Shown here: positions 2,758 to 20,664 of the stretch, in pieces
How the letters are laid out: each line of letters opens with the position of its first letter
Numbering within the stretch: position 1 is the stretch's first letter
Position numbers and translations under genes: made by a program
The notes under the pieces: model-generated
Database searches by the model: none
What the model was told of the DNA's origin: nothing
What the model saw: the letters and a program-made list of their open reading frames with translations, nothing else
Source: Bacteroidota bacterium
GTDB lineage: Bacteria > Bacteroidota > Rhodothermia > Rhodothermales > UBA10348
Length of the DNA: 64,000 nt
Direction: 5' to 3'
NCBI GenBank assembly: GCA_029262835.1
Contig: JAJCYQ010000011.1
Coordinates: forward strand, 1,907-65,906

Positions 2758-2998
2758 AATAGTCAGTGACGGTCGAAAAAAAGGTGTCATACGGAACCAC
2801 GTTTTGAGAACGCAGAAAACCGTCGGATTTGCGATTCCGTTCGAAAAAACATCGTAACGCCTCCGAATGGCCAGTGGGTGCCTGACAGTTTGATAATACG
2901 GTAAATAAAGCAATTTCAGGTCTTGACACCACGGATATGGAGAATTTCATGCAAGCGAAAAACGTAGTTTGGCCCCCCACCGAACCACATCTCGCATA

Positions 2999-4150
2999 AT
3001 GATCCTGATCCTCAAGCCCAATACAGACCCGGAAAGTGCCGAATGGGCGCAGCTCACGCGCCACCTGGACTCGCTCGGCGACATCACCTGGACACAGCAC
3101 GAAATCCAGGGAACCGAGCAGCGCCTGACCGAGATCTATCTGCTCGGCAACACGAAAGCGCTCAGCACAGGCACCATGCAGGGCCTGCCGTGCGTGGAGC
3201 GGGCGGTGCGCGTTCAGACGTCGTACCGAATTCTCGGACGACACGGGCACGAAGACCGCCAGAACGGCTTTACCTACAACGGCATCCGGTTCGACCAGGA
3301 TTCGCTGCACGTGTTCGCGGGACTCTGCGCTGTTGACACGAAGGAACATGTGGAGCAGATGATGCAGGCGCTGCAGGCGCACGGCCAGCAGACGACCCGC
3401 ATGGGCGCGTACAAGCCGCGAACGAGCCCATATTCGTTCCAGGGACACGGAGCGAACTGCCTCCCCTATGTCTTTGAACTCGCTGGCCGGTACGACATCA
3501 AAGTAATTGCCATGGAGGTCACGCACGAATCGCATGTCGAGGAGATCGATGCGGCGCTTGACGAGGCCGGTCGCCCAACAGGCGTCATGCTGCAGATCGG
3601 CACGCGGAACACGCAGAACTTCGAGCTGCTCAAGGCCGTCGGCCGGCAGCATACCCACCCGGTCCTCTTCAAGCGCGGTTTCGGTATCACACTCGACGAG
3701 TCGCTGAACGCGGCCGAATACCTGGCGAGCGAAGGCAATCCGAACGTCGTGTTCACGCTGCGGGGCGTAAAGACAAGTATGGGCGATCCGCACCGCAACC
3801 TGGTGGATTTCGCACATGTGCCGGTCGTCAAGCGCCTGACGCGCATGCCAGTGTGTATTGATCCGTCGCACTCGGTCGGTACGCGCGACGTCGCACCCGA
3901 TGGCCTTACCGATGTCATGCACGCGACGGCGCAGGGCGTCGTTGCGGGTGCCAATATGGTACTCGTCGATTTCCACCCGGTGCCGTCCAAAGCGCTTGTC
4001 GATGGCCCGCAGGCACTTACGATCCCTGAGCTCGGGTGGTACCTGGAAGATGTGGCTATTGCGCGCGAGGCCTATCTGAAGCGCCGCGAAGCCGCCCGGC
4101 GCTACGCGTCCGGGAGGACCGACGCTACCAATGAAACGGCATCTTCCTGA
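2999..4150 (+). CDS. aroF: 3-deoxy-7-phosphoheptulonate (DAHP) synthase, type I-beta with N-terminal regulatory domain
   Basis: [10 protein letters not shown]... ferredoxin/ACT-like N-domain, then a KDO8P/DAHP-synthase core ([38 protein letters not shown]). Start moved to ATG 2999 from the TTG at 2969 in the ORF track. Confidence 0.9.
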
Positions 4151-9090: not shown

Positions 9091-10106
9091 CGCGACGTGC
9101 CTGGTCATTCGCTCTGCTTGGCGCAGCCAGCCTGCTGACGTTTGTCTTCGGGCTGACAGTCGGTACGGCCGACGTAGGGCTGGCGGCGCTGGCCGATCTC
9201 GTCGCGGGTCGGGAGACACTTTCCGAGGCTGAGCGGCTGATTCTGCTCGAATCGCGGCTGCCCCGCGTGCTGGGTGCATGGATAACCGGTGCGGGCCTTT
9301 CCATCGTCGGCGTTGCCATGCAGGCGCTCGTGCGCAACCCGCTGGCGGAACCATATATACTGGGCATTTCGGGTGGGGCGTCGGCGGGGGCATCGCTATT
9401 TTACATGGGACTGCTGCCGAGCCTGTTCCTGGGAGCACTGAGCGTCTCGATTGCGGCCTTTCTCGGAGCGCTGGCTACGATCTTGCTCGTTTATGCCGTC
9501 GCCAGGACGCGGGATGGCCTGTCCGTCACGCGGTTGCTCCTGGCCGGAGTGGCGCTGGCCTCGCTGACCGGTGCCCTGTCTTCGTTCGTATCCTTCGCAT
9601 CGCCCGACGCCAACAGGCTGCGCGCGGTACTGTTCTGGCTGTTGGGTTCATTCTCTGGACTGACCCTGTCGGATTTGCCGATTGCCACGGTGGCATCTGT
9701 CCTCGGTCTCGGTATTCTCATGGTTTTCTCGCGGTCCCTCGACGCCCTCCTGCTGGGCGAGGAACCGGCCGCCACACTCGGTATCCCGGTCGAGCGAATG
9801 AAGCACGTACTCATCGTGCTGGCTGCCCTTGTGACGGGTACACTGGTGGCCATATCGGGCGCCATTGGATTCGTGGGACTTATTGTGCCCCACGTCGTTC
9901 GGGGATTCACAGGCGTCTCACACAGGTATGTTGTACCGGCGGCGTTCCTGGGTGGTGGGCTGTTTCTCGTGGCGGCCGACACGCTGGCTCGCAGTGTGCT
10001 GCCCGGCCAGGAAATCCCGGTTGGTATTGTATCATCGATGGCCGGCGTACCATTTTTCCTCGTGCTGCTCAGACGGCAGTCCTGGCGCTTCAAAAACCTG
10101 TCCTGA
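9087..10106 (+). CDS. FecCD-family ABC transporter permease (iron-chelate/B12 type)
   Basis: 339 aa, ~9 TM. SRLPRVLGAWITGAGLSIVGVAMQALVRNPLAEPYILGISGGAS is the FecCD signature region. ATGA overlap with the binding-protein gene. Confidence 0.9.
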   Translation: MTRRAWSFALLGAASLLTFVFGLTVGTADVGLAALADLVAGRETLSEAERLILLESRLPRVLGAWITGAGLSIVGVAMQALVRNPLAEPYILGISGGASAGASLFYMGLLPSLFLGALSVSIAAFLGALATILLVYAVARTRDGLSVTRLLLAGVALASLTGALSSFVSFASPDANRLRAVLFWLLGSFSGLTLSDLPIATVASVLGLGILMVFSRSLDALLLGEEPAATLGIPVERMKHVLIVLAALVTGTLVAISGAIGFVGLIVPHVVRGFTGVSHRYVVPAAFLGGGLFLVAADTLARSVLPGQEIPVGIVSSMAGVPFFLVLLRRQSWRFKNLS

Positions 10107-10126
10107 GGGCCGGAGTATACCCGCGC

Positions 10127-11095
10127 ATGACACTGAAAGACATCCAAAAACCGGTCGCGGAAGAACTGGAAGCGTTCCGATCGTACTTCCGGTCGGCCAT
10201 GCGTTCAGACGTTCGCATTCTCGACCTGATTGTGCGTTACCTGCTGCGGAAAAAGGGCAAACAGTTGCGACCTACGCTCGTCCTGCTCTCGGCCCGGGCC
10301 TGCGGCGAGGTGGCGGACGCCACGTATCAGGGAGCGGCACTCGTGGAATTGCTGCACACGGCCACCCTGGTGCACGATGATGTGGTTGACGACGCGGATC
10401 GCCGCCGCGGTATTTTTTCTATCAATGCCCTGTGGAAAAACAAAATTGCCGTGCTCATGGGCGATTTTCTGTTGAGCCGGGGGCTGCTTCTGGCGCTCGA
10501 TGCCCGCGAGTATGATCTGCTGCATGTAGTCTCTGATGCCGTCAGGCGCATGAGTGAAGGAGAGCTACTGCAGATCGAGAAGTCCCGCAAACTCGATATC
10601 GACGAGGAAACCTACTTTCGCATTATTTCTGACAAGACCGCCTCGCTGCTGTCGGCCTGCACGCGGTGCGGTGCGGTAAGTGTTCGTGCCAGCACGGAGA
10701 CCATCGAGGTCATGAGCCGTTTCGGCGAACAACTCGGGCTGGCCTTCCAGATCCGTGACGACCTGTTTGATTTCGGGCAGACTGATGTCGGCAAGCCACT
10801 CGGAATTGATATCCGGGAGAAAAAAATGACGCTCCCGCTTATTCATGCCCTCCGGGAAGCACCCGCGAAAGAGCGACGTCGGATGCTCGGACTGGTTGGC
10901 AGGTCGGAGAAATCAAATGGTGACGTCGCCGATGTGGCCGCCTTTGTGGCCGCCTACGGAGGACTTGACTACGCGCGCGAACGCATGCACTTTCACGCGG
11001 AAGCGGCGCGCCGCGAGCTGGACGCTCTCCCGCCGGGCGATGCCCGCACAGCGCTCGACAACCTGGTGCAGTTCACCGTCTCAAGAACGCGATAG
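10127..11095 (+). CDS. polyprenyl diphosphate synthase (trans-IPPS, IspB-like)
   Basis: First DDxxD (LVHDDVVDDADRRRG) and second DDxxD (FQIRDDLFD) motifs. Start at ATG 10127. The upstream 283 codons of the ORF track entry overlap the permease in another frame. Confidence 0.9.
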   Translation: MTLKDIQKPVAEELEAFRSYFRSAMRSDVRILDLIVRYLLRKKGKQLRPTLVLLSARACGEVADATYQGAALVELLHTATLVHDDVVDDADRRRGIFSINALWKNKIAVLMGDFLLSRGLLLALDAREYDLLHVVSDAVRRMSEGELLQIEKSRKLDIDEETYFRIISDKTASLLSACTRCGAVSVRASTETIEVMSRFGEQLGLAFQIRDDLFDFGQTDVGKPLGIDIREKKMTLPLIHALREAPAKERRRMLGLVGRSEKSNGDVADVAAFVAAYGGLDYARERMHFHAEAARRELDALPPGDARTALDNLVQFTVSRTR

Positions 11096-11843
11096 CCACG
11101 CGGTTGAAATGCGCTGGCTGCTCAATATTGCAGACGTGACCCGAGCGTTCCACCACCTCAAGTTCAGCAGACCGATCATTGGCGACAGCGCGGCGTGCGG
11201 GCGGCAGAAACAGGTAGTCGCGCGCCCCCATTACGTAAAGCGTCGGGGAGCGGTCTGTCGACGTCGACCAGGCGGCCAATTTCGAGTGGACCTCCCGCGT
11301 CAACCGCAACCATCGCCGAAATTCAGCGGGTCGAACAGAGCGCGCCTCCCGCCGGAACACCCTGCGCGCTTCATTGGCCTTCGGGCCAGGCATGATGATC
11401 CACGCAAACACGGCATACAGGGCGCGGAATGGGATGACGTATTTAAGCGAGTGCCCCGCCGCGATCAGCACGCGCGCAGGAGCGGTAAAACCCACTACAG
11501 CGCCGGCATATACGGCCGAACGCACGCGCTCCGGGTGACATTCCTGCAGGGTACGTATCAAGATCGTGCCGAGCGATACCCCTACGAAATGTGCCTCTAC
11601 TATTCCGTGGTGATCCATCACGTCCAGGATATCACTCGAAATACCCTCAAGGGAATAAGCGCTGCCGTTACCTCCATAGGCCGCCGATCGGCCGTGCCCC
11701 CGCAGGTCGACCATGAGGATATTGAACCACGGCCGAAAGGCCCTGATCTGTTTGAACCAGACCACCGAAGACCCACCGGCGCCATGTACGAAAACAACCC
11801 AGTCCTGGGCCTTCTCATTCCTGTATATTCGATGGAACAGCAT
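11073..11843 (-). CDS. alpha/beta hydrolase
   Basis: VFVHGAGGSS, nucleophile elbow GVSLGT, C-terminal SGHVCNIEQP. Confidence 0.8.
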   Translation of the reverse strand: MLFHRIYRNEKAQDWVVFVHGAGGSSVVWFKQIRAFRPWFNILMVDLRGHGRSAAYGGNGSAYSLEGISSDILDVMDHHGIVEAHFVGVSLGTILIRTLQECHPERVRSAVYAGAVVGFTAPARVLIAAGHSLKYVIPFRALYAVFAWIIMPGPKANEARRVFRREARSVRPAEFRRWLRLTREVHSKLAAWSTSTDRSPTLYVMGARDYLFLPPARRAVANDRSAELEVVERSGHVCNIEQPAHFNRVAIAFLRR

Positions 11844-11917
11844 GCGGGTCCCCTACGAATGAACGCACCGATTGTCCCCGCTTCTTGTTACCTTGATTCT
11901 GTTCAAACTCCAGGCGC

Positions 11918-12739
11918 ATGAAGGTGCAAATCTGGGGCACACGCGGCTCACTGCCCGCACCCGGCCCCCACACAGTACGCTACGGCGGCAACACATCCTG
12001 CATAACGATTTCGATCGACGACAGCACGACGCTCGTCCTCGACGCCGGCACCGGTCTCGCGGCCATGGGCCTTGAAGCCCCTCCGCCGCCCCATACCTAT
12101 TACCTGCTCCTCTCCCATCCCCATTGGGATCATATCCAGGGGCTCCCGCTGTTCGCTCCGCTCATGTGCCCGGGCAATCATATCGTTTTCCTGACCGAGC
12201 CGGCACCAGAGATTGGACAGCAGGCCATGTCACAGTTCGATGGTCTTCATTTCCCGCTCTGCCATGACGACATCGAAGCTGATGTCCGGCTGGATGCACG
12301 CCAGATCGGCGAGGTACTCTCTGGATGCGGGGTTTCCATTTCCTGGCAGCGTCTGAATCATACAGGCACATGTTTCGGCTATCGCGTCCAGGGGCCAACG
12401 CGGAGCCTGGTCTATATGACGGATAATGAACTCGATGAGGTGACGGGAGACGTCTCCTACGATACTTTGCTGGCGTTCTGCCGCGACGCCGATGTGCTCA
12501 TCCACGACTCCCAGTACATGGACGATGAGCGACCATTCCGAACGGGCTGGGGACACAGTTTCCTGTCCGATGTCTGCCGACTGGCACGTCGAGCGCAGGT
12601 CGGAGAGCTGATTCTCTTTCATCATGATTATCGGCGCAGCGACGCGGAGATCGATGCCATGAACGCGGCGGCCTGCGCAACTCTCGGCAACGACGTCGGC
12701 TGCGCTGCTGCATGTGAAGGCATGACATTTGAAATATGA
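11918..12739 (+). CDS. MBL-fold metallo-hydrolase
   Basis: HxHxDH motif (SHPHWDHIQG), GTRGS N-terminus, later HDSQY and FHHD metal ligands. Confidence 0.8.
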   Translation: MKVQIWGTRGSLPAPGPHTVRYGGNTSCITISIDDSTTLVLDAGTGLAAMGLEAPPPPHTYYLLLSHPHWDHIQGLPLFAPLMCPGNHIVFLTEPAPEIGQQAMSQFDGLHFPLCHDDIEADVRLDARQIGEVLSGCGVSISWQRLNHTGTCFGYRVQGPTRSLVYMTDNELDEVTGDVSYDTLLAFCRDADVLIHDSQYMDDERPFRTGWGHSFLSDVCRLARRAQVGELILFHHDYRRSDAEIDAMNAAACATLGNDVGCAAACEGMTFEI

Positions 12740-12821: not shown

Positions 12822-13472
12822 GTGACTCATTCAGAACAACAGGCCTCGCCCGAAACTGGCACCAACACCCACGCTGACGCCACGCGACGGCGCCGATCGC
12901 GGCTGCGAAGCCTGGCCGAGGTGGCCGCAATCATCGGCATTTTCGCCTTTTTCCGCTTTACAGATACAGGAACGGTGGCGCAGGGCTGGTTGCAGCAGGG
13001 CATTCTGGCCACCGGACTCTTCCAGGCCGATGTAAACTGGGCGGAAGAAAATCGGCAACCTGCCAATTTTGACGTGGAACTGGTCACTCTGGACGGGGAG
13101 CCCGTGTCACTGTCTTCCTACAGGGGAAAGCCCATTTTCATGAATATATGGGCAACGTGGTGCCCTCCGTGTCTGGCTGAAATGCCCTACATCGAAGCGC
13201 TCTATCAGGAAGTAAAAGACGAGGACATCATATTTGTCATGATATCCACGGACGAAACGGCTGAAGAAGCCAGGGCGTACATGCAGCAGAAAGGATATAC
13301 ACTTCCAGTCTACCGACTGGCCGGCTCGCTCCCGGAGCCCTACACCAGTCGCGTGCTACCGACAACCTACGTGATCGGCGCAGACGGCACGCTTGGAACG
13401 GTCCACTCGGGGATGGCGAACTACAACAAGCCGGGCTTCAGGAAATACCTGCGGTCGCTGAAGGGCGAGTAG
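12822..13472 (+). CDS. membrane-anchored TlpA/ResA-family thiol:disulfide oxidoreductase
   Basis: One N-terminal TM helix, then a thioredoxin fold with WATWCPPC active site. GTG start as in the ORF track. Confidence 0.85.
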   Translation: MTHSEQQASPETGTNTHADATRRRRSRLRSLAEVAAIIGIFAFFRFTDTGTVAQGWLQQGILATGLFQADVNWAEENRQPANFDVELVTLDGEPVSLSSYRGKPIFMNIWATWCPPCLAEMPYIEALYQEVKDEDIIFVMISTDETAEEARAYMQQKGYTLPVYRLAGSLPEPYTSRVLPTTYVIGADGTLGTVHSGMANYNKPGFRKYLRSLKGE

Positions 13473-13859: not shown

Positions 13860-13922
13860 GATGTTTACGTATTGGTTATGCTGTGGACAACAAAGCGTAC
13901 GTAGTATACGTTGAATACTGTC

Positions 13923-14726
13923 ATGAACGCACAGCCTGACATAGCCACCGGCTCCGTGCCACCCGGAAACCCCCCTCCCAAGCGGACATTCGTCAATGGG
14001 GCGTATGAACTTGGCTGGGTGCAATCCCGCGCGGAACTGCGAGCTGTGCAGGAACTTCGATACCACGTCTTCAACCTTGAGTTGAATGAAGGCCTGGATG
14101 CATCACACGAGACGGGCCGCGACAGTGACCAGTACGACGACGTGTTCCACCACCTCTACGTCCGGCACATACCGTCCGGTCGCGTTGTAGGCACCTACCG
14201 CATGCAGACGGCCCACATGGCCCGCAGCAACAAAGGATGGTATTCGGCGAATGAATTTGATTTTTCTGGCGTTCCAGCGTCCGTCCTGGAAGCCAGCGTA
14301 GAAACAGGACGCGCCTGTATTGTGCAGGAGCACCGGAGTCTGAAGGTGCTTTATCTGCTCTGGAAGGGCATCGGATTCTATATGCAGGCCACGGGGTCAC
14401 GGTTTTTGTTCGGGTGCTGCTCACTCACGAGCCAGGATCCCCTCGAGGGAAGCGCTACACTGGCCTACCTCAGGCAGCACGGGCATATGCATGCTGATCT
14501 GTGTATCCCGCCGCAGCCCGCGTACGGTTGCTGTCATGAAATTCCTGAGGGATCCGGTGTCGCGCCCATTCGTCCTCCCCGCCTCATGCGCGCGTACCTT
14601 AGTTTTGGAGCCCGGATCTGTGGCCCCCCGGCCATGGACAGGGAATTCAAGACAATAGATTTCCTTGCCCTCTTCGACGTGAAGAGTCTGCAGGAGTCCG
14701 ATCTGGCGTTCTATACCATTTCATGA
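13923..14726 (+). CDS. olsB: GNAT-family N-acyl amino acid (lyso-aminolipid) synthase, OlsB/GlsB-like
   Basis: ~267 aa. [20 protein letters not shown]..., GTYRMQT, SANEFDF, ETGRACI, and [29 protein letters not shown] matches the hemolysin-like/OlsB family C-terminus. The amino-acid head group cannot be read from the sequence. Confidence 0.8.
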   Translation: [267 protein letters not shown]

Positions 14727-15493
14727 TCAAGCACGTGCGGGCGGGCGGGCGGCTCGTTGCCATTATCCTTGTCACGCTGTTCCTCACCTTTCTGTGGTGG
14801 GTGCTCGGGCCGTTCAAGAATCGGACCGTCCGGGGACGCGTCGCATGGCGGCATACCATTACTGGAGGCTGGGCTCGCGGACTACTACGCATCATGGGCT
14901 GTCGTCTGCACGTCAGCGGCTACCCACCAGACCCGCCCTTTTGCCTGGTCGCCAATCACCTGGGCTATCTTGACATCCTTGTGGTCATCGCCACCACCAG
15001 GGCTCGCCTCGTTTCCCGCGCTGACCTCGCCCACTGGCCAGGCATCGGGTGGCTCGCGCGTACATTCGGTACCATATTCATTGAGCGCTCCCGGATCAGG
15101 GACATTCCCCGTGTGGCCCAGGATATGCGCCGTGTATTGGCCGATGGGGACGGTATCGTATTCTTCCCGGAAGGCACTTCCTCATCGGGCGCAGGCGTTC
15201 TGCCGTTCAAGGCGCCGCTCATGTCCGTACCTGCTGAACTGGGCCTACCCGTCCACACCGCGGCCATATCGTACGACCTCCCGGGGGGCGATGCCACGAC
15301 GGAGCTCTGCTGGTGGGGCGACATGACCTTTGGAGACCATTTCTGGCGCGTGCTAACGTTTTCCCGATTCAATGCACGTATCCACTACGGGAGCGCACCC
15401 ATTGAGCCAGCCGACCGTAAAACGTTGACAGCTGCCGCTTTCGAGTCCGTAGAAGAGTTATATTTGCAGGTACCCACAACGCAAGCCAGATGA
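14723..15493 (+). CDS. olsA: lysophospholipid acyltransferase family protein, OlsA/GlsA-like O-acyltransferase
   Basis: HX4D motif NHLGYLD, FFPEGTSS, N-terminal TM helix. ATGA overlap with the olsB-like gene. Confidence 0.8.
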   Translation: MIKHVRAGGRLVAIILVTLFLTFLWWVLGPFKNRTVRGRVAWRHTITGGWARGLLRIMGCRLHVSGYPPDPPFCLVANHLGYLDILVVIATTRARLVSRADLAHWPGIGWLARTFGTIFIERSRIRDIPRVAQDMRRVLADGDGIVFFPEGTSSSGAGVLPFKAPLMSVPAELGLPVHTAAISYDLPGGDATTELCWWGDMTFGDHFWRVLTFSRFNARIHYGSAPIEPADRKTLTAAAFESVEELYLQVPTTQAR

Positions 15494-16005
15494 AGCGCAC
15501 AGACACACTCGCCGCCCTCAACCAGGTCCACCTCAGGCAGGGTATTTACCTGCTTGCCTCGCTTACTGACGCCCAGTACACGGCTACGCACGCCACGCTC
15601 TACCCATCCGGCGTCGGCGAGCACATGCGCCACATTATTGAGCACTACCAGCTGTTTCTTGGGGGCTTCACCAGTGGGCTCGTCGACTATGACGCCAGGA
15701 AACGGGACACCCGTATATCCGAGAGCCGCCTCATTGCAATCGACGTCATGGAACGTATTGTTGATGACCTCGATGCCATGGGCGCATCCGATGGAGCGCT
15801 CGAAATCAAGATGGCGGCATCGCACACCCCGGACAACGACTCGCCACTGTCAGATTCGACCATCAAGCGGGAGTTGCAGTATCTCCAGGCGCACACTATC
15901 CACCATTACGCCCTGATTGCCCTCATTCTCCGCATCCAGGGTGTCGAGCCCACACCTGATTTCGGCGTCGCTCCGTCCACACTGCAGCATCGCCTGGAAC
16001 GTTGA
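15490..16005 (+). CDS. DinB-family (DinB_2-like) four-helix-bundle protein
   Basis: 171 aa with spaced His residues (GEHMRHIIEHY ... LQAHTIHHYALI) as in DinB metal sites. ATGA overlap upstream and TTGA overlap downstream. Confidence 0.6.
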   Translation: MKRTDTLAALNQVHLRQGIYLLASLTDAQYTATHATLYPSGVGEHMRHIIEHYQLFLGGFTSGLVDYDARKRDTRISESRLIAIDVMERIVDDLDAMGASDGALEIKMAASHTPDNDSPLSDSTIKRELQYLQAHTIHHYALIALILRIQGVEPTPDFGVAPSTLQHRLER

Positions 16006-18671
16006 CGAAACAGGTGGCATCCACGGGTCGCCTGCGGCGACTCTCGGGACGAATTTTACTTGTCTGGCTTGTTCTGCTCGCCGCTTCGCACCTGACGCGT
16101 TACGTTCAGGACGACCCCGGTCCGCTTGAGGATCAGCACGTTCGCATGGTCGCGTCGGGCGCGGACGCCGACCCTGTCCGTATGGCCTATCTCGACTCGG
16201 CACCCCGAGACGCGGCGACCCACATGGCCTCCGACGGCCAACGTCCGGTCATTTTCATTCTTCATGGCAGCCCCGTCGCTTCGCGATCCATGCGCGCACT
16301 GCACAGGCATCTCGCTGAAGATGGTCGTTTCCGGGTAATCACGCCCGACTTGCCGGGTTTCGGTGGGTCCACACTGCGCATTGAGGACTATTCCATCCGC
16401 GCGCATGCCCGCTACACACTGGCGCTCCAGGATACGCTGGGGATTGACCGGGTGCATTTTGTAGGATACAGCATGGGCGGAGGCGTTGCCATCGAAGCGG
16501 CGCACGAGGCGCCCATCAGGGTGGCCTCTGTTCAGCTCCTGTCTGCAATCGGGGTGCAGGAGCTCGAGTTGATGGGCGAATATCACCTGAACCGGGCCGT
16601 CCACGGCCTGCAACTCGCTGCCATCTGGGCTGTCTCTGAGCTTGTGCCACACTTCGGGTGGTTTGACAATGCCATTCTTGGCGTGTCGTACGCCCGAAAC
16701 TTTTACGATACCGACCAGCGGCCGCTGCGCTCGCACCTCGCGGCCTGGGCAGGTCCCATGCAGATCATCCACGGCACCGACGATCCGCTCGTGCCCTATG
16801 AAGCCGCGCTCGAGCATCACCGGATAGTGCCACAGAGTGAACTGGTGAGCCTGACGTCGCACGGCCATGGCCTGCCATTCCAGGAAGCCGAGATGACGGC
16901 ACGGCACATTGCCGACTTTGTTGCGCGGGTCGAGCGCCGTGAGGCGCCGACCCGCGCCGCAGCCTCGCCAGAGCGGAAGCGCGCTGCCGAGCGCCCATTC
17001 GATGCCGCGAACGTCCCCCCTTCGTCCGGCTTTGCGCTCTTCATTCTCGTCGTTCTCATCATTTTCGTCTCCTTCGTGAGCGAAGACCTCTCGGCCATCG
17101 GGGCAGGCCTTCTGGCTGCCCGGGGTACCATGCCCTTCGAGCTGGCGCTACTTGCGGCTTTTCTCGGTATCGTGATCGGCGACGTGGGGCTGTATGCGGC
17201 GGGCCGCCTGTTCGGGCGTCGGCTGCTCGCCATTCCACCGTTCTCCTGGATGCTGAGCGACGCCCAACTGGACCGCGGCGCGAGCTGGTTCCGCGAGAAA
17301 GGTCCGCACGTCATCCTGGCCAGCCGATTCGTACCGGGTACCCGGCTACCCACCTACGTAGCTGCGGGACTACTTCGGACGCCCTTCTGGATATTCCTGG
17401 GGTACTTCATGGCAGCAGCCATCGTCTGGACGCCTCTCATCACGGGGCTCTCTTCATGGGCCGGGACGGAAATCCTCGATTTCTACGCGGCCTACGAAGC
17501 GTACGCTCTCTGGGTGCTTCTCATACTGGTCGCCGCGCTCTACCTCACGATCCACATCGGCATCCCGCTCACGACGCACAACGGCCGGCGACGACTCATC
17601 TCCCGCTGGCGCCGGCTCTCGCGTTGGGAATTCTGGCCGGCCCCTGTTTTCTATGCTCCCGTTGCCCTCTGGATACTCCTTCTCGCCGTGCGGCACCGAT
17701 CTCTCACGCTGTTCACGGCAGCCAATCCGGCCATGTTCACCGGCGGATTCCTTGGCGAACGCAAACAGGACATCCTTGAGCTGTTACGGCACAGCGATGA
17801 GTTTGTGGCCACCTGGCGCCTGATTCCCGCCGCCGCTGACAACCGTACCGAACGCGTCACAGCATTCATGAAACAGCACGACCTGACCTGGCCCATCGTG
17901 CTGAAACCCGATGTCGGCGAGCGGGGACAGGGCGTCTGGATTGCCCACTCAAAGGCCGATGTCGATACCTACTTCAGTTGCCACGAGGGCGATATCATTG
18001 CGCAGGAGTACGTCGAAGGCCTGGAACTCGGCGTTTTCCATGTACGCGAACCCGGCCAGCCATCGGGCCGAATATTCTCCGTCACCGAGAAACGCCCGGT
18101 CTGGCTCGTCGCCGATGGACGGCGCACCCTCGAACGGCTCATTCTCGACGACGAGCGCGCGGTCAGCATGGCACCCCTTTTCATGCAGCGCTTCTCCTCC
18201 GATCTCGGACATGTTTTTGACGAGGGCACGCGCATACCACTCGCCGAAGTCGGCACGCACTGCCGCGGCGCCCTCTTTCTCGACGGCCGTCCGCATATGA
18301 GTGCCGCCTTCTCGGAAACGATTGAACGGATATCCCGTCAGACAGACGGTTTCTTTTTCGGTCGATACGATATCCGGGTGCCGGACCCAGATCGTCTCGC
18401 CCACGGAGATGGATTCAAGATCCTCGAACTGAACGGCGTGTCCTCGGAAGCAACGCACATATACGACCCCGCTACCTCCCTCTTCAGGGCCTGGTACACG
18501 CTCCTCGTCCAGTGGACGTTGGCGTTCCGGATTGGCCGCGCCAACCGCGCACGCGGCCTGCAACCCGACCCTCTCCGCGTGCTCGTCAGCGAACTCCGAC
18601 GCGCCCGTCTCCGGGACAGCGCCCGCACCAACTCGGCCGCCCGGACCTCATCCAACACTCCGGCGCCATGA
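16002..18671 (+). CDS. tri-domain membrane protein: alpha/beta hydrolase + DedA/VTT domain + ATP-grasp ligase
   Basis: 889 aa. N-terminal TM. Hydrolase region: ILHGSP, GYSMGG, HGHG. DedA region: FVSEDLSAIGAGLLA, ASRFVPGTRLPTYVAAGLL. Extra TM helices follow. ATP-grasp region: IVLKPDVGERGQGV, IAQEYVEG, GRYDIRV, ILELNGVSSEATHIYDP. Confidence 0.75.
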   Translation: MTKQVASTGRLRRLSGRILLVWLVLLAASHLTRYVQDDPGPLEDQHVRMVASGADADPVRMAYLDSAPRDAATHMASDGQRPVIFILHGSPVASRSMRALHRHLAEDGRFRVITPDLPGFGGSTLRIEDYSIRAHARYTLALQDTLGIDRVHFVGYSMGGGVAIEAAHEAPIRVASVQLLSAIGVQELELMGEYHLNRAVHGLQLAAIWAVSELVPHFGWFDNAILGVSYARNFYDTDQRPLRSHLAAWAGPMQIIHGTDDPLVPYEAALEHHRIVPQSELVSLTSHGHGLPFQEAEMTARHIADFVARVERREAPTRAAASPERKRAAERPFDAANVPPSSGFALFILVVLIIFVSFVSEDLSAIGAGLLAARGTMPFELALLAAFLGIVIGDVGLYAAGRLFGRRLLAIPPFSWMLSDAQLDRGASWFREKGPHVILASRFVPGTRLPTYVAAGLLRTPFWIFLGYFMAAAIVWTPLITGLSSWAGTEILDFYAAYEAYALWVLLILVAALYLTIHIGIPLTTHNGRRRLISRWRRLSRWEFWPAPVFYAPVALWILLLAVRHRSLTLFTAANPAMFTGGFLGERKQDILELLRHSDEFVATWRLIPAAADNRTERVTAFMKQHDLTWPIVLKPDVGERGQGVWIAHSKADVDTYFSCHEGDIIAQEYVEGLELGVFHVREPGQPSGRIFSVTEKRPVWLVADGRRTLERLILDDERAVSMAPLFMQRFSSDLGHVFDEGTRIPLAEVGTHCRGALFLDGRPHMSAAFSETIERISRQTDGFFFGRYDIRVPDPDRLAHGDGFKILELNGVSSEATHIYDPATSLFRAWYTLLVQWTLAFRIGRANRARGLQPDPLRVLVSELRRARLRDSARTNSAARTSSNTPAP

Positions 18672-19420
18672 TCACGCCGCTCGCCCGTCTCGTATCGTCC
18701 CTTGGCAACTACGTACTGTTCATGGGCAAAGCCGTCTCGTCGGCCCGCTCCGCGGTTCACCTGCGTCATGAAGTCCTCCGCCAGGCCGTCCGGCTCGGTT
18801 ATGAAGCCCTTCCCGTCGTCATGCTCGCCAGCGCATTCGCCGGAGTCGTGACGACGCTGCAGACTGCCTACCAACTCCAGAACACGGTCCTCACGGAAGA
18901 TGCCATCGGCGCAATCGTCGTCCCCACGCTGCTGCTTGAACTCTGCGCACTCGTGCCCGGCCTTGTCATGGCCTCGCGCGTCGGCGCCAGCGTCGCCGCC
19001 GAAATCGGAACCATGCAGGTGTCCGAACAGATCGATGCCCTCGAAGCCATGGGACTCAACAGCATCAGCCACCTCGTACTGCCGCGCGTCATGGCAGGCC
19101 TTCTGATGTTTCCCGCCATGTATGTTGCCTCCGCACTCGTCGCCGTACTCGCCGGTGGGTTTGCGGGCGAGTACATGGGTTTTCTGTCGATGGATGCATT
19201 CGTTCGCGGCGCACGAACCTACTTTGCGCCCTTTGACGCGGCGTACGGCATGACCAAGTCGCTTGCTTTCGGATACATCATCACATCGATCGCCTGCTGG
19301 AAGGGCTTCAACACGCGTGGAGGCGCCCAGGGCGTGGGTGATTCCACGACGCAGGCTGTCGTCGTAAGTTGTGTCAACATCCTGATCGCAGACTTCATAG
19401 TCGCCGAACTCCTACTCTGA
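18668..19420 (+). CDS. mlaE: MlaE-family ABC transporter permease (lipid transport)
   Basis: 250 aa from ATG 18668 (ATGA overlap with the previous stop). EIGTMQVSEQIDALEAMG and LVLPRVMAG are MlaE/YrbE signatures. No MlaF or MlaD gene is adjacent. Confidence 0.85.
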   Translation: MITPLARLVSSLGNYVLFMGKAVSSARSAVHLRHEVLRQAVRLGYEALPVVMLASAFAGVVTTLQTAYQLQNTVLTEDAIGAIVVPTLLLELCALVPGLVMASRVGASVAAEIGTMQVSEQIDALEAMGLNSISHLVLPRVMAGLLMFPAMYVASALVAVLAGGFAGEYMGFLSMDAFVRGARTYFAPFDAAYGMTKSLAFGYIITSIACWKGFNTRGGAQGVGDSTTQAVVVSCVNILIADFIVAELLL

Positions 19421-20664
19421 TGTCCACCCACCCATTCCACCCCGACCTTCTGACGCAGATTGCTGCCGAACACGGGACGCCCGTCTACGTCTACGACGAA
19501 GCCACCGTCATGCAGCGCATTGACGAACTCAAAGCGCATCTGACTGGTATTCCCGTTCGCCTGCTCTACGCCATGAAGGCGAACCACTGCCCTCCGCTTC
19601 TCGATGTCATGCGCCGTGCTGGGCTTGGAATAGATGCCGTTTCGCCGGGCGAGCTACAGCTCGTGCTTCGCCTTGGATTCGATCCGGCCCACATCCTTTA
19701 CTCGGCCAATAACATGACCGACGAGGAAATGCGGCACGCGGTGGAGGCTGGCGTCACAATGAACATTGGCGAGCTCTCGCGGCTCGAGCGACTCGGCGCC
19801 ACGTTCGGCGGATTGGACGTGTGCGTGCGCATCAATCCGCAAATCGGTGCCGGCCACCACGCACACGTGGTGACGGGAGGCGACCGGAGCAAGTTCGGCA
19901 TTCCGGTTGAGCAGATGGATCGTGTGCTTGACATCGCTGCACGCTATGATCTCCGCATTGTCGGACTGCATCAACATATCGGCAGCGGCATCCTGGATAC
20001 GGAAACACTATGGAGCGCAGCCGCCGTCATTCTCGAAACGGCCCGGAGCGTCGAGCACCTTCGTTTCATCAACGTCGGTGGCGGCCTCGGCGTGCCCTAC
20101 CGACCAGATGAAGCGCCGCTCGACCTCGAGGCCTTCGAATCGACCATTGTAGCGTCCATCCGCGATTTCGTCGCCTCCCACCCATCCGAAGGGCTGGAAG
20201 TCCGGTTCGAGCCAGGCCGCTACTTCACGGCGGAATCCGGCGTACTGCTCAGCCGCGTCAGCACGATCAAGACGACCGGCAGCCGGACTTTTGCCGGTCT
20301 GGACACCGGCATGGGACACCTGCTCCGGCCCGCCCTCTATGACGCGTGGCACACGATCTGCAACCTGACGCGTCCCCACGGCACGCCGAGAACGTACGAT
20401 GTCGTTGGCAATGTCTGCGAGTCGGCCGATTTCTTTGCCCGGGACCGGGACATTCCCGAGCTCCACGAAGGCGACATCGTGGCCATACTCGACGCCGGAG
20501 CCTACGGCATGTCCCTGTCGTCGACCTACAACATGCGGCCCCTGCCCGCCGAAGTCTGGATCCACCCGGACGGCACGCCGGAACGCATTCGCCGTCGGCT
20601 ATCCGCGTCCGAATTCGCCACCGCCTATCTCAGTGACTACGGCCGGTTGACGGCGGCCGTCTGA
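19420..20664 (+). CDS. lysA: diaminopimelate decarboxylase
   Basis: GTPVYVYDE, YAMKAN (PLP Lys), HIGSG, EPGR, CESAD, GAYG. ATG 19420 shares one base with the mlaE stop (TGATG). Confidence 0.92.
   Translation: MSTHPFHPDLLTQIAAEHGTPVYVYDEATVMQRIDELKAHLTGIPVRLLYAMKANHCPPLLDVMRRAGLGIDAVSPGELQLVLRLGFDPAHILYSANNMTDEEMRHAVEAGVTMNIGELSRLERLGATFGGLDVCVRINPQIGAGHHAHVVTGGDRSKFGIPVEQMDRVLDIAARYDLRIVGLHQHIGSGILDTETLWSAAAVILETARSVEHLRFINVGGGLGVPYRPDEAPLDLEAFESTIVASIRDFVASHPSEGLEVRFEPGRYFTAESGVLLSRVSTIKTTGSRTFAGLDTGMGHLLRPALYDAWHTICNLTRPHGTPRTYDVVGNVCESADFFARDRDIPELHEGDIVAILDAGAYGMSLSSTYNMRPLPAEVWIHPDGTPERIRRRLSASEFATAYLSDYGRLTAAV

Follow-up and report, generated by a model that had tools for sequence, protein, structure and literature searches.

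The window analyzed here is the whole stretch of 64,000 nucleotides from a Rhodothermales member of the Bacteroidota. Positions 16002-18671 on the plus strand constitute one ORF of 889 aa, as described in the initial annotation. The start/stop overlap reported there is also present: the TTG start of this ORF shares bases with the TGA stop of a DinB-like ORF (cgTTGAcg, 16002-16005). Because full-length homologues of the protein (45-82% identity) occur in more than 2000 protein clusters, it is not a chance ORF. The OlsB-like, OlsA-like, and DinB-like genes named as its upstream neighbours were confirmed by Pfam and NCBIfam scans of the window. A scan for the promoter and terminator of the operon gave scores no better than those of shuffled sequence. 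The genes, and the parts of the 889-aa protein, are as follows, with the evidence in parentheses.

13911..14726, +: OlsB-like N-acyltransferase (GNAT, Acetyltransf_5), the first gene of the operon (Pfam, NCBIfam, upstream synteny)
14723..15493, +: OlsA-like lyso-aminolipid O-acyltransferase, whose start overlaps the GNAT stop (Pfam, NCBIfam, upstream synteny)
15490..16005, +: DinB-superfamily protein, 171 aa (Pfam DinB_2/DinB, upstream synteny)
16002..18671, +: hydrolase-DedA-ATP-grasp membrane protein, 889 aa (domain scan, homologues, AlphaFold2 model)
16041..16097, +: N-terminal signal-anchor helix after a basic tail, residues 14-32 (hydropathy peak, charge counts, AlphaFold helix)
16245..16901, +: alpha/beta serine hydrolase domain, residues 82-300, probably periplasmic (Pfam, invariant triad)
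17022..17564, +: DedA/VTT membrane domain, residues 341-521 (Pfam VTT_dom, YqjA alignment)
17577..17693, +: Arg-rich amphipathic helix and hydrophobic WEFWP helix, residues 526-564, a putative re-entrant or monotopic anchor of the ATP-grasp domain
17757..18581, +: ATP-grasp ligase domain, residues 586-860, without a full pre-ATP-grasp N-domain (profile against PDB, AlphaFold, Foldseek)
18512..19420, +: orphan MlaE-type lipid ABC permease, a possible lineage-specific operon member (Pfam MlaE, E 8e-63)

Residues 82-300 matched Abhydrolase_1 (E 3.9e-26) and Abhydrolase_6 (E 4e-15), both above the Pfam gathering scores. Ser157 in the nucleophile elbow (GYSMGG, a G-x-S-x-G motif), Asp261, and His289 were invariant in 64 homologues. 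Thus, the alpha/beta hydrolase assignment is upheld. Within the lid RNFYDTDQRPLR (residues 232-243), N233, F234, and D238-R243 were invariant and the other positions were nearly so. Foldseek matched this module to esterases and lipases, among them the membrane phospholipase PlaF and ABHD6; the TM-scores against esterases were 0.7-0.77 when normalised by target length. The AlphaFold2 model of the full-length protein had a pLDDT of 88.2 and a pTM of 0.65; when it was used as the Foldseek query, generic esterases were the sole return. In the initial annotation, the hydrolase was one of the three joined modules. It is not a core part, since about half of the ATP-grasp family lacks the module. Because the split forms without hydrolase keep the OlsB/OlsA linkage, the ATP-grasp domain is the core and the hydrolase is accessory.

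The DedA/VTT assignment also held. VTT_dom (PF09335) matched residues 370-483 with E 1.5e-14 and 54.9 bits, against a Pfam cutoff of 33.9. The essential residues Asp51, Arg130, and Arg136 of E. coli YqjA align to Asp362, Arg442, and Arg448 of the fusion, all of which were invariant in the 64 homologues. YqjA Glu39 has no aligned counterpart because of a deletion there, and the adjacent Glu361 of the fusion is invariant. The best NCBIfam match of the DedA part was the undecaprenyl-phosphate transporter UptA (E 1e-12), far below its cutoff.

For the ATP-grasp region, the Pfam RimK match was sub-threshold (E 0.005, 16.9-18.6 bits against a cutoff of 21) and all NCBIfam matches were far below cutoff. 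Therefore, a plain Pfam/NCBIfam scan could not confirm this module, and the profile-HMM scan proposed in the initial annotation placed the hydrolase and DedA domains above threshold and the ATP-grasp domain below it. The ATP-grasp domain is a subfamily without a curated Pfam or NCBIfam model. A single-sequence PDB search reached just E 2.7e-4. With a 14-sequence profile of residues 527-889 as the query, all 30 of 30 PDB matches were ATP-grasp enzymes, the best being CphA2 (7ta5, E 2e-8) and CphA1 (7wac, E 1e-6). The AlphaFold2 model of the domain (pLDDT 86.8) gave 394 Foldseek matches in the PDB at E <= 0.001, and 50 of the 50 matches listed were ATP-grasp ligases. Among them, GshAB, CphA1/2, and Ddl were found at E 5e-10 to 1e-7; the top match was the glutathione-synthetase ATP-grasp of GshAB, with a negligible margin over CphA and Ddl. 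Lys635 (VLKP), Glu675, Arg788-x-Asp790, and Glu809-x-Asn811 were invariant in 64 sequences, and the ATP-binding Lys and the Mg-binding Asp/Glu-x-Asn motifs align to those of CphA2. The profile search and the structure model establish the domain, in its predicted fold, as an ATP-grasp, in agreement with what the initial annotation had called and proposed to check by structure prediction. As judged from the conserved residues, the 889-aa product was shown to be a real three-module inner-membrane enzyme with the predicted catalytic residues intact in each module.

In the model, the pre-ATP-grasp region comprises one strand and a few short helices, not a full domain. The WEFWP helix, in which Trp542, Glu543, Trp545, and Pro553 are invariant, lies directly N-terminal of the ATP-grasp domain. 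The models show helices at 526-540 and 547-564, and an N-terminus with the Arg-rich and WEFWP helices is also kept in stand-alone ATP-grasp proteins. We infer that segment 526-564 is a re-entrant or monotopic anchor of the ATP-grasp domain. Membrane sides were assigned from charge counts and from the YqjA alignment mapped on YqjA cysteine-accessibility data. The N-tail, followed by a signal anchor that is covered by AlphaFold helix 2-35, has a median of 4 K+R and 0 D+E in 64 homologues, and segment 522-546 has a median of 7 K+R. The hydrolase is most likely periplasmic and the ATP-grasp domain cytoplasmic, so that the two enzymes would lie on opposite membrane faces. This most likely arrangement, with the hydrolase facing the periplasm, is a correction added to the earlier reading.

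The GNAT at 13911-14726 matched Acetyltransf_5 (E 3.7e-27), and its best NCBIfam match was OlsB (E 9e-33, 114 bits), below the equivalog cutoff of 320. The protein encoded at 14723-15493 matched Pfam Acyltransferase (E 1.3e-19) and NCBIfam OlsA (E 2.5e-41, 141 bits), below the cutoff of 300. At related loci, the OlsB/OlsA scores were 132-180 bits against cutoffs of 300-350. Since OlsB and OlsA are the best-matching families and the scores are nevertheless sub-cutoff, these neighbours are a related subgroup. The protein at 15490-16005 matched DinB_2 (E 1e-5) and DinB (E 1.8e-5), both above cutoff; it had no sequence match in the PDB. As the MlaE match starts at residue 89 of the 18512-19420 ORF, the true start of this gene is probably after the fusion stop. 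Only Rhodothermales-like loci (L001-L004, L008, L029, L039) have the MlaE gene after the fusion. The downstream decarboxylase at 19369-20664 was rejected as a head-group supplier: it is lysA above the equivalog cutoff and lies beside the cluster in one lineage only. A redoxin gene is located 440 bp upstream in the window, and a redoxin is also found in the Nevskia-type locus L085. Polyprenyl synthase genes occur at a distance of 5 kb on the upstream side in the window and of 1.9 kb on the downstream side in L083.

About ten phyla are represented among the at least 574 species genomes that carry the protein. We retrieved 80 genome loci, all from MAGs, and 60 of these had enough flank for counting partners upstream within 4.5 kb on the same strand. 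An OlsB-like gene was present in 43 of the 60 loci, an OlsA-like gene in 38, and a DinB-like gene in 39; 51 of 60 carried at least one of GNAT, acyltransferase, and DinB. The loci span Bacteroidota/Rhodothermia, Acidobacteriota, Gemmatimonadota, KSB1, Calditrichota, Planctomycetota, Verrucomicrobiota, and Desulfobacterota. In the remaining 9 loci, none of the three partners was found within this range, nor was there any GNAT match in the flanks of up to 10 kb on each side. Nevskia-type loci had no GNAT and no acyltransferase within 6 kb. Thus, the olsB/olsA linkage predicted in the initial annotation is far above chance and extends far beyond Rhodothermota and Bacteroidota.

Both the fusion and the split versions predicted alongside it exist. 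DedA+ATP-grasp proteins, ATP-grasp proteins alone, and DedA and ATP-grasp as separate genes were found, sometimes in a different gene order. In L084 and L094, a stand-alone ATP-grasp gene is followed by GNAT and acyltransferase genes; in L089 and L091, the order is GNAT-AT-DinB-[DedA-ATP-grasp]; in L087, DedA and ATP-grasp are separate genes in a cluster that also has a divergent GNAT-AT pair. Gene-calling artefacts were ruled out as the origin of the DedA-ATP-grasp forms in L089, L091, and L081, where a DinB-like or TANGO2-like gene abuts the start. The form in L083 is an actual or possible artefact, and a hydrolase lies in another frame just upstream. These loci show that the ATP-grasp gene is coupled genomically to OlsB-like, OlsA-like, and DinB-like genes across many phyla, whether fused or free. 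Every prediction of the initial annotation that can be checked computationally proved correct.

No partner accompanies the ATP-grasp gene more constantly than the DinB-like gene, which is nearly constant in the conserved module; it adjoins DedA-ATP-grasp or ATP-grasp-only forms in L081, L085, L087, L089, L091, and L092. The module is also larger than was noticed in the initial annotation. TANGO2-like genes, DoxX-like genes (DoxX_2-like at about 20 loci), and a Ferric_reduct-Rieske gene with a 257-aa uncharacterised partner (about 20 loci) recur in other lineages, and the DoxX-like, Rieske, and TANGO2-like genes are absent from the window.

The literature search returned no paper on the fusion or on an ATP-grasp enzyme in aminolipid synthesis. 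We compared the fusion with known systems. In MprF, a cytoplasmic head-group-aminoacylating enzyme and a product-translocating membrane domain are joined in one polypeptide, as would be the case in the fusion, and this analogy is consistent with the predicted topology. However, the Pfam and NCBIfam scans of the fusion contained no MprF-type flippase or synthase family. Whereas MprF uses aminoacyl-tRNA and forms an ester on phosphatidylglycerol, the fusion would use ATP directly and form an amide; it has DedA in place of the MprF flippase domain and often an extra hydrolase. With the DedA family (YqjA/YghB, UptA, TMEM41B/VMP1), the fusion shares the above-threshold VTT domain, the essential acidic residue, and the two arginines. 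It differs in that its DedA domain is flanked by enzymes on both sides and probably by one extra re-entrant helix C-terminally. We know of no proof that DedA proteins in general act as lipid flippases.

By profile and fold, the nearest ATP-grasp domains are those of the cyanophycin synthetase G domain, RimK/LysX, and GshAB, and the Lys, Arg-x-Asp, and Glu-x-Asn motifs are common to all. These enzymes act on peptide-like substrates, whose terminal carboxylate is phosphorylated and joined to an amino acid; activation of such a carboxylate is a feature of all the nearest structures, Ddl included. The likeness is limited to the ATP-grasp core, at 15-20% identity. The N and M (Mur-ligase-like) domains of CphA are absent, and the G-domain core alone aligns (profile 100-288 to 7ta5 231-436). 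An invariant membrane helix stands in place of the pre-ATP-grasp domain, whereas the known relatives are all soluble.

The acyltransferases of the window resemble OlsB and OlsA of the ornithine-lipid pathway, although below the equivalog thresholds. The modifiers of that pathway are the OlsC/D/E hydroxylases, the OlsG methylase, and the ATP-dependent taurine transferase of cerilipin. For this taurine transfer, biochemical work documents that an amine is attached to the carboxylate of ornithine lipid in an ATP-dependent manner, with no gene assigned (PMC12971839); we propose this reaction type for the fusion. A direct tie to cerilipin producers is not supported, because no Acetobacteraceae name occurs among the 120 best relatives of the alphaproteobacterial-type stand-alone ATP-grasp. 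Dipeptide and tripeptide aminolipids exist, and the review describing them names no enzyme that extends the head group (PMC12971839). An alpha/beta-hydrolase fold in aminolipid assembly has a precedent in OlsI, described as an O-acyltransferase of the OlsH/OlsI ornithine-lipid pathway (PMC12971839). The hydrolase of the fusion differs in being probably periplasmic and in being dispensable in half of the family.

On this basis, the fusion may be the modifying and translocating component of a conserved, so far undescribed aminolipid pathway; we put the chance of this at slightly below even. In the cytoplasmic leaflet, the OlsB-like and OlsA-like enzymes would assemble an N-(acyloxyacyl) amino-acid lipid whose head-group carboxylate is assumed to be free. 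The ATP-grasp domain, held at the cytoplasmic membrane surface by the re-entrant hydrophobic helix found where an N-terminal substrate domain is usual, would phosphorylate this carboxylate and ligate an amino acid or another small amine, so that the head group is extended or capped. The DedA domain would move the product or its precursor between leaflets, by the logic of the synthase-flippase fusion MprF, and the serine hydrolase, where present, would deacylate or remodel the lipid at the periplasmic face. The lipodipeptide chemistry is predicted: a different kind of amine could take the place of the amino acid, or the lipid itself could supply the amine. A bolder form of the proposal, which we advance only tentatively, is that the family is the first ATP-grasp ligase acting on a membrane lipid and the missing aminolipid head-group extender (from mono-amino-acid to dipeptide-type or amine-capped), in a trans-membrane assembly line of cytoplasmic ligase, DedA translocator, and periplasmic hydrolase.

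The placement of the two enzymes probably on opposite faces with a transporter between them would also suit inward salvage or repair. Here the periplasmic hydrolase, whose fold resembles lipases and esterases such as PlaF and ABHD6, would cleave an acyl-amino-acid lipid or lipopeptide that is damaged or comes from outside, DedA would import the fragment to the cytoplasmic leaflet, and the ATP-grasp domain would re-ligate it, as in lysophospholipid recycling by LplT/Aas. However, the core pathway cannot begin with the hydrolase, because about half of the family lacks this module and keeps the OlsB/OlsA linkage, and ATP-grasp chemistry gives amide bonds to amines, not ester re-acylation. We consider salvage quite unlikely. 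It is unlikely, to a lesser degree, that the ATP-grasp acts upstream of acylation, making a soluble dipeptide or modified amino acid that the OlsB-like enzyme then N-acylates, or that a side-chain amine of the lipid (Orn/Lys type) attacks the activated carboxylate of a small acid. The dipeptide-forming ligases Ddl and GshAB among the structural neighbours, and the distinct OlsB-related subgroup of the linked GNATs, are in line with this, but for a ligase with a soluble substrate, neither the invariant anchor embedded in the membrane where the N-domain would be nor the recurrent fusion with a DedA transporter would be needed.

A redox-active or thiol-bearing lipid, such as an acylated sulfur amino acid with a glutathione-synthetase-like extension, would give roles to the constant DinB-like protein (as a thiol transferase) and to the DoxX-like and ferric-reductase-Rieske proteins (as redox partners); the redoxin genes and the GshAB match at the top of the Foldseek list would fit as well. 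This is guilt by association with broad families throughout, the GshAB margin is negligible, and the window has none of the DoxX-like, Rieske, or TANGO2-like genes, and we regard the idea as improbable. The lowest probability goes to a role in an envelope process that has nothing to do with aminolipids, such as the handling of polyprenyl phosphate by DedA, in which the adjacency to aminolipid genes reflects envelope co-regulation alone. The UptA match and the polyprenyl synthase genes near the cluster point in this direction, but polyprenyl phosphate offers an ATP-grasp enzyme neither a carboxylate nor an amine, and co-regulation would not predict an OlsB/OlsA linkage across about ten phyla, three architectures, and varied gene orders.

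Under phosphate and other stresses, aminolipids take the place of phospholipids; they also serve as immune ligands. To our knowledge, no head-group-extending or head-group-capping enzyme has been identified for the Ser-Gly, Orn-Ser-Gly, or taurine-ornithine lipids. The fusion is the best available candidate for a head-group-modifying enzyme of amino-acid lipids. The cluster is a concrete candidate, represented by thousands of protein clusters in soil, sediment, and aquatic phyla with almost unstudied membranes. The mechanism of DedA proteins is debated in bacteria, and likewise for human TMEM41B and VMP1; if the proposal is true, this Rosetta-stone fusion would give a DedA transporter a defined lipid substrate. 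It would also tie bacterial TANGO2 and DinB homologues to acyl-lipid metabolism. The presence of bacterial TANGO2 homologues beside acyltransferases bears on the function of the human disease gene TANGO2.

The fusion lies at the end of a compact gene row in the window, in front of a lipid permease gene.

13911-14726, + strand: OlsB-like N-acyltransferase (GNAT)
14723-15493, + strand: OlsA-like acyltransferase
15490-16005, + strand: DinB-like ORF
16002-18671, + strand: fusion of alpha/beta hydrolase, DedA/VTT domain and ATP-grasp ligase, 889 residues
18512-19420: MlaE-type lipid ABC permease

The TTG start of the fusion shares TTGA at 16002-16005 with the TGA stop of the preceding ORF, and this start region is also kept in the closest relative, locus L001 (L-numbers denote related genome loci with their own coordinates). 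In the Pfam analysis, Abhydrolase_1 was found on residues 82-300 (E 3.9e-26) and VTT/DedA on residues 370-483 (E 1.5e-14; 54.9 bits against a cutoff of 33.9). On the ATP-grasp region, the only Pfam match, RimK, fell short of the threshold (16.9 bits against 21), and NCBIfam yielded no more than weak matches to cyanophycin synthetase and archaeal Ddl-like models. The domain scan proposed in the initial annotation therefore placed the hydrolase and DedA assignments above cutoff and by itself left the ATP-grasp assignment unproven.

A profile of 14 sequences covering residues 527-889 was run against PDB sequences, and all 30 matches were ATP-grasp enzymes. The top matches were cyanophycin synthetase 2 (7ta5, E 2e-8) and cyanophycin synthetase 1 (7wac, 1e-6), followed by a RimK-domain protein and GshAB. 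The AlphaFold2 model of the same residues had a mean pLDDT of 86.8, and Foldseek with this model retrieved GshAB, CphA1/2 and many Ddl structures (E 5e-10 to 1e-7). In the alignment of 64 full-length homologues, Ser157, Asp261 and His289 of the hydrolase, Glu361, Asp362, Arg442 and Arg448 of DedA, and Lys635, Glu675, Arg788, Asp790, Glu809 and Asn811 of the ATP-grasp module were invariant. By fold and motifs, the C-terminal module belongs to the ATP-grasp superfamily and to no curated subfamily of it; the other two belong to DedA/VTT and to the serine alpha/beta hydrolases. The three-module reading of this ORF was thus confirmed by Pfam, the PDB profile, AlphaFold2/Foldseek and the invariant residues: all three modules are real and their catalytic residues are intact.

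More than 2000 protein clusters came up in a word-indexed search with the fusion. The full-length relatives are about 870 aa long and share 45-60% identity, and their source annotations are generic, the names being only "alpha/beta fold hydrolase" or "DedA". When one genome was scanned for each GTDB species, a relative was present in at least 574 species. All 80 retained loci came from MAGs, labeled as Bacteroidota/Rhodothermales, Acidobacteriota (Blastocatellia, Thermoanaerobaculia), Gemmatimonadota, KSB1, Calditrichota, Latescibacterota, Planctomycetota, Verrucomicrobiota and Desulfobacterota. Several of the MAGs of L022, L035, L048, L056, L060, L061, L076 and L080 are titled Heliomicrobium/Heliobacteriaceae or Chloroflexaceae. 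The proteins of the MAGs so titled are 44-49% identical to the window protein, as in Acidobacteriota, and these taxonomic labels look unreliable.

An exhaustive search with the ATP-grasp-region profile detected 4232 representative proteins at E <= 0.001 (1638 at E <= 1e-30). The best 150 of the 4232 were scored with module profiles cut from the alignment. Hydrolase, DedA and ATP-grasp occurred together in 70 of these 150, DedA-ATP-grasp without the hydrolase (520-600 aa) in 57, a membrane helix with ATP-grasp only (350-400 aa) in 19, and hydrolase plus ATP-grasp with a divergent middle in 4. Thus, the core is the ATP-grasp with its anchor helix, usually joined by DedA, with the hydrolase as an accessory. 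The role first given to the hydrolase is revised in this respect, since 57 + 19 of the best 150 relatives do without it. On the Planctomycetota contig L083, the fusion was matched in two pieces (hydrolase 1234-1863; DedA-ATP-grasp 1889-3523). Only the second is called as a gene, and the break is either a true split or due to a frameshift. The 3' end of this second piece is overlapped by a Methyltransf_30 gene, a noteworthy neighbor given that planctomycetes N-methylate ornithine lipids.

Linkage was analyzed by tblastn with the window neighbors as queries against the 80 loci, of which 60 contained 3.5 kb or more of sequence upstream of the fusion. A partner was counted when it lay on the same strand within 4.5 kb upstream.

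Table. Partner genes upstream of the fusion homologue (60 loci)
GNAT, acyltransferase and DinB: 28
GNAT and acyltransferase: 9
GNAT and DinB: 4
GNAT only: 2
Acyltransferase only: 1
DinB only: 7
No partner gene: 9

Since an OlsB-like gene usually occurs in only one or two copies per genome, GNAT adjacency at 43 of 60 loci, in about ten phyla, is far beyond chance. The linkage holds whether the modules are fused or separate and whatever the order of the genes. In L084 and L094, whose surroundings (SecB, Tim44-like, MltA) we take from synteny to be alphaproteobacterial, a stand-alone ATP-grasp gene is directly followed by the GNAT and acyltransferase genes. In L089 and L091, the order is GNAT, acyltransferase, DinB, an optional TANGO2-like gene and the DedA-ATP-grasp gene, and in L081 the DinB-like gene overlaps the start of the DedA-ATP-grasp gene. 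In L087, DedA (203 aa) and the ATP-grasp (389 aa) are encoded by separate genes, clustered with DoxX-like, DinB-like and TANGO2-like genes; the GNAT and acyltransferase genes of this locus are divergent from that cluster. Such linkage across fused, split and reordered forms is what is classically seen for a functional module. The computable predictions of the initial annotation, including linkage to olsB/olsA-like genes and the existence of split forms, were all borne out. OlsB was the best model for the linked GNATs (114-180 bits, well below the equivalog cutoffs of 320-350) and OlsA for the linked acyltransferases (141-180 bits, well below the cutoff of 300); by sequence, these proteins are best placed in an OlsB/OlsA-related subgroup.

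Further genes recur in the clusters. By tblastn, a TANGO2/NRDE-family gene (PF05742; its product starts Met-Cys and carries NRDE) was found in 30 of 80 loci, in nearly all of them directly upstream of the DedA/ATP-grasp gene and after the DinB-like gene. The split forms are also accompanied by it. A small DoxX_2/MauE-like membrane protein (140-160 aa) is encoded in about 20 loci, usually just downstream of the DedA/ATP-grasp gene. About 20 loci (about a quarter) carry, directly upstream of the OlsB-like gene, a fusion of ferric-reductase-TM and Rieske 2Fe-2S domains (~350 aa), then a conserved 257-aa protein without a Pfam match.

L078, 9225-9941: TANGO2-like
L056, 9210-9947: TANGO2-like
L089, 5068-5847: TANGO2-like
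L087, 5229-6011: TANGO2-like
L091, 7691-8104: DoxX_2/MauE-like
L087, 3634-4104: DoxX_2/MauE-like
L085, 7242-7733: DoxX_2/MauE-like
L093, 4279-4713: DoxX_2/MauE-like
L007, 6456-7496 and 7643-8380: ferric-reductase-Rieske and 257-aa protein
L093, 1265-2320 and 2317-3090: ferric-reductase-Rieske and 257-aa protein

The window has none of these three kinds of genes; its cluster is the minimal version with four genes, and an orphan MlaE permease gene comes after it. The position of the permease is conserved only in Rhodothermales-like loci, and no MlaF or MlaD was seen adjoining it. Because its Pfam match begins at ORF residue 89, the 160 nt that its ORF shares with the fusion are probably not a true overlap. 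After the permease comes lysA (above the equivalog cutoff), which we regard as unrelated housekeeping and not as a pathway member. The remainder of the inspected window holds housekeeping and regulatory genes. Upstream of the OlsB-like gene, at 440 bp, there is a redoxin/AhpC-TSA gene (12822-13472). Rhodothermales-like loci keep this redoxin gene, though the distance varies, and the Nevskia-type cluster has a similar gene nearby (L085, 2403-3107). This association is weak and may be a coincidence. In the polyprenyl synthase ORF (9278-11095, 605 aa), only residues 314-554 are covered by the Pfam match, and 250 nt are shared with the next ORF (10845-11921), which encodes 358 aa and has no Pfam match. 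The synthase itself probably begins a long way downstream of 9278.

The membrane topology was deduced from charge counts in the 64 homologues and an alignment of E. coli YqjA with the DedA regions of the fusion and three relatives. In the N-terminal tail, the median count is 4 for basic and 0 for acidic residues; a hydrophobic helix (14-32) comes next, and together they form a signal-anchor pattern. The loops 400-456 and 522-546 are strongly basic (10 and 7 K+R), and loop 481-502 is not. Hydrolase-less DedA-ATP-grasp proteins begin with short acidic or neutral tails. In this alignment, Asp362, Arg442 and Arg448 of the fusion are the counterparts of Asp51, Arg130 and Arg136 of YqjA. By cysteine accessibility, A20, S52, V59 and V180 of YqjA are on the periplasmic side and V99, L117 and G217 on the cytoplasmic side (bioRxiv 10.1101/2021.10.18.464800). 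Transferred by the alignment, these data would place the linker at ~337, before the first DedA helix, and residue ~490 in the periplasm, and ~412-430 and ~527 in the cytoplasm. From the charge counts and the transferred data, the hydrolase most likely faces the periplasm, opposite the ATP-grasp, which revises its initial placement; the Arg-rich helix and the ATP-grasp would be cytoplasmic, on the ATP side. We consider this topology as a whole rather probable.

The hydrophobic helix 547-564, preceded by invariant Trp542-Glu543-x-Trp545-Pro546, should be re-entrant or monotopic, because it lies between two cytoplasmic segments and, in stand-alone ATP-grasps, behind a basic N-tail. In other ATP-grasp members, a pre-ATP-grasp domain helps to bind the acceptor substrate. 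The AlphaFold2 model has only one strand and a few short helices ahead of the Lys635 strand; as modeled, helix 547-564 appears to replace most of that domain, and the active site may be open toward the membrane surface.

ATP-grasp ligases convert a carboxylate to an acyl-phosphate, which they then transfer to an amine. The N-(acyloxyacyl) amino acids made by OlsB/OlsA-type enzymes have a free alpha-carboxylate. DedA proteins have been implicated in the movement of lipids and polyprenyl phosphates, and MprF couples head-group aminoacylation to flipping. In the mechanism that we propose, the ATP-grasp would activate the aminolipid carboxylate at the cytoplasmic leaflet and add an amine, DedA would translocate the product or a precursor, and the periplasmic hydrolase, where present, would remodel the lipid. 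We put this forward tentatively, at somewhat less than even probability. Terminal-carboxylate chemistry fits, because the CphA G domain, RimK-like enzymes and GshAB act on peptide-like terminal carboxylates. According to a 2026 review (PMC12971839), there are aminolipids of the Ser-Gly and Orn-Ser-Gly types, and the Ser-Gly lipid is made by way of glycine lipid. The transfer of taurine onto the ornithine-lipid carboxylate is ATP-dependent and its gene is unknown (PMC12971839). Thus, the proposed type of reaction has a gene-less biochemical precedent.

Several less probable rival readings stand beside this mechanism. The system may serve inward salvage, or the ligase may make a soluble dipeptide precursor or use the lipid as its amine partner. 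The product may also be a thiol or redox lipid; the ferric-reductase-Rieske pair suggests a redox modification step in the lineages that carry it. A further rival is an unrelated envelope role, against which speaks the coupling of the parts of the fusion to the acyltransferase pair.

The fusion is neither an MprF nor a cyanophycin synthetase, although the CphA G domain is a near structural relative of its ATP-grasp module. Aminolipid synthesis and modification with a synthase-translocator logic are known. Our literature search found no paper tying an ATP-grasp or a hydrolase-DedA-ATP-grasp fusion to aminolipids, and the link of this family to the known Ser-Gly or taurine-ornithine lipids remains a candidate only. 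Human TANGO2 is reported to bind acyl-CoA and also to be a probable Cys-Ntn hydrolase (PMC11867700, PMC13044924); the TANGO2-like genes beside acyltransferases in a bacterial operon may bear on TANGO2 function. As for the ATP-grasp itself, there is a substantial chance that its action on a membrane lipid would be a chemistry new in kind.
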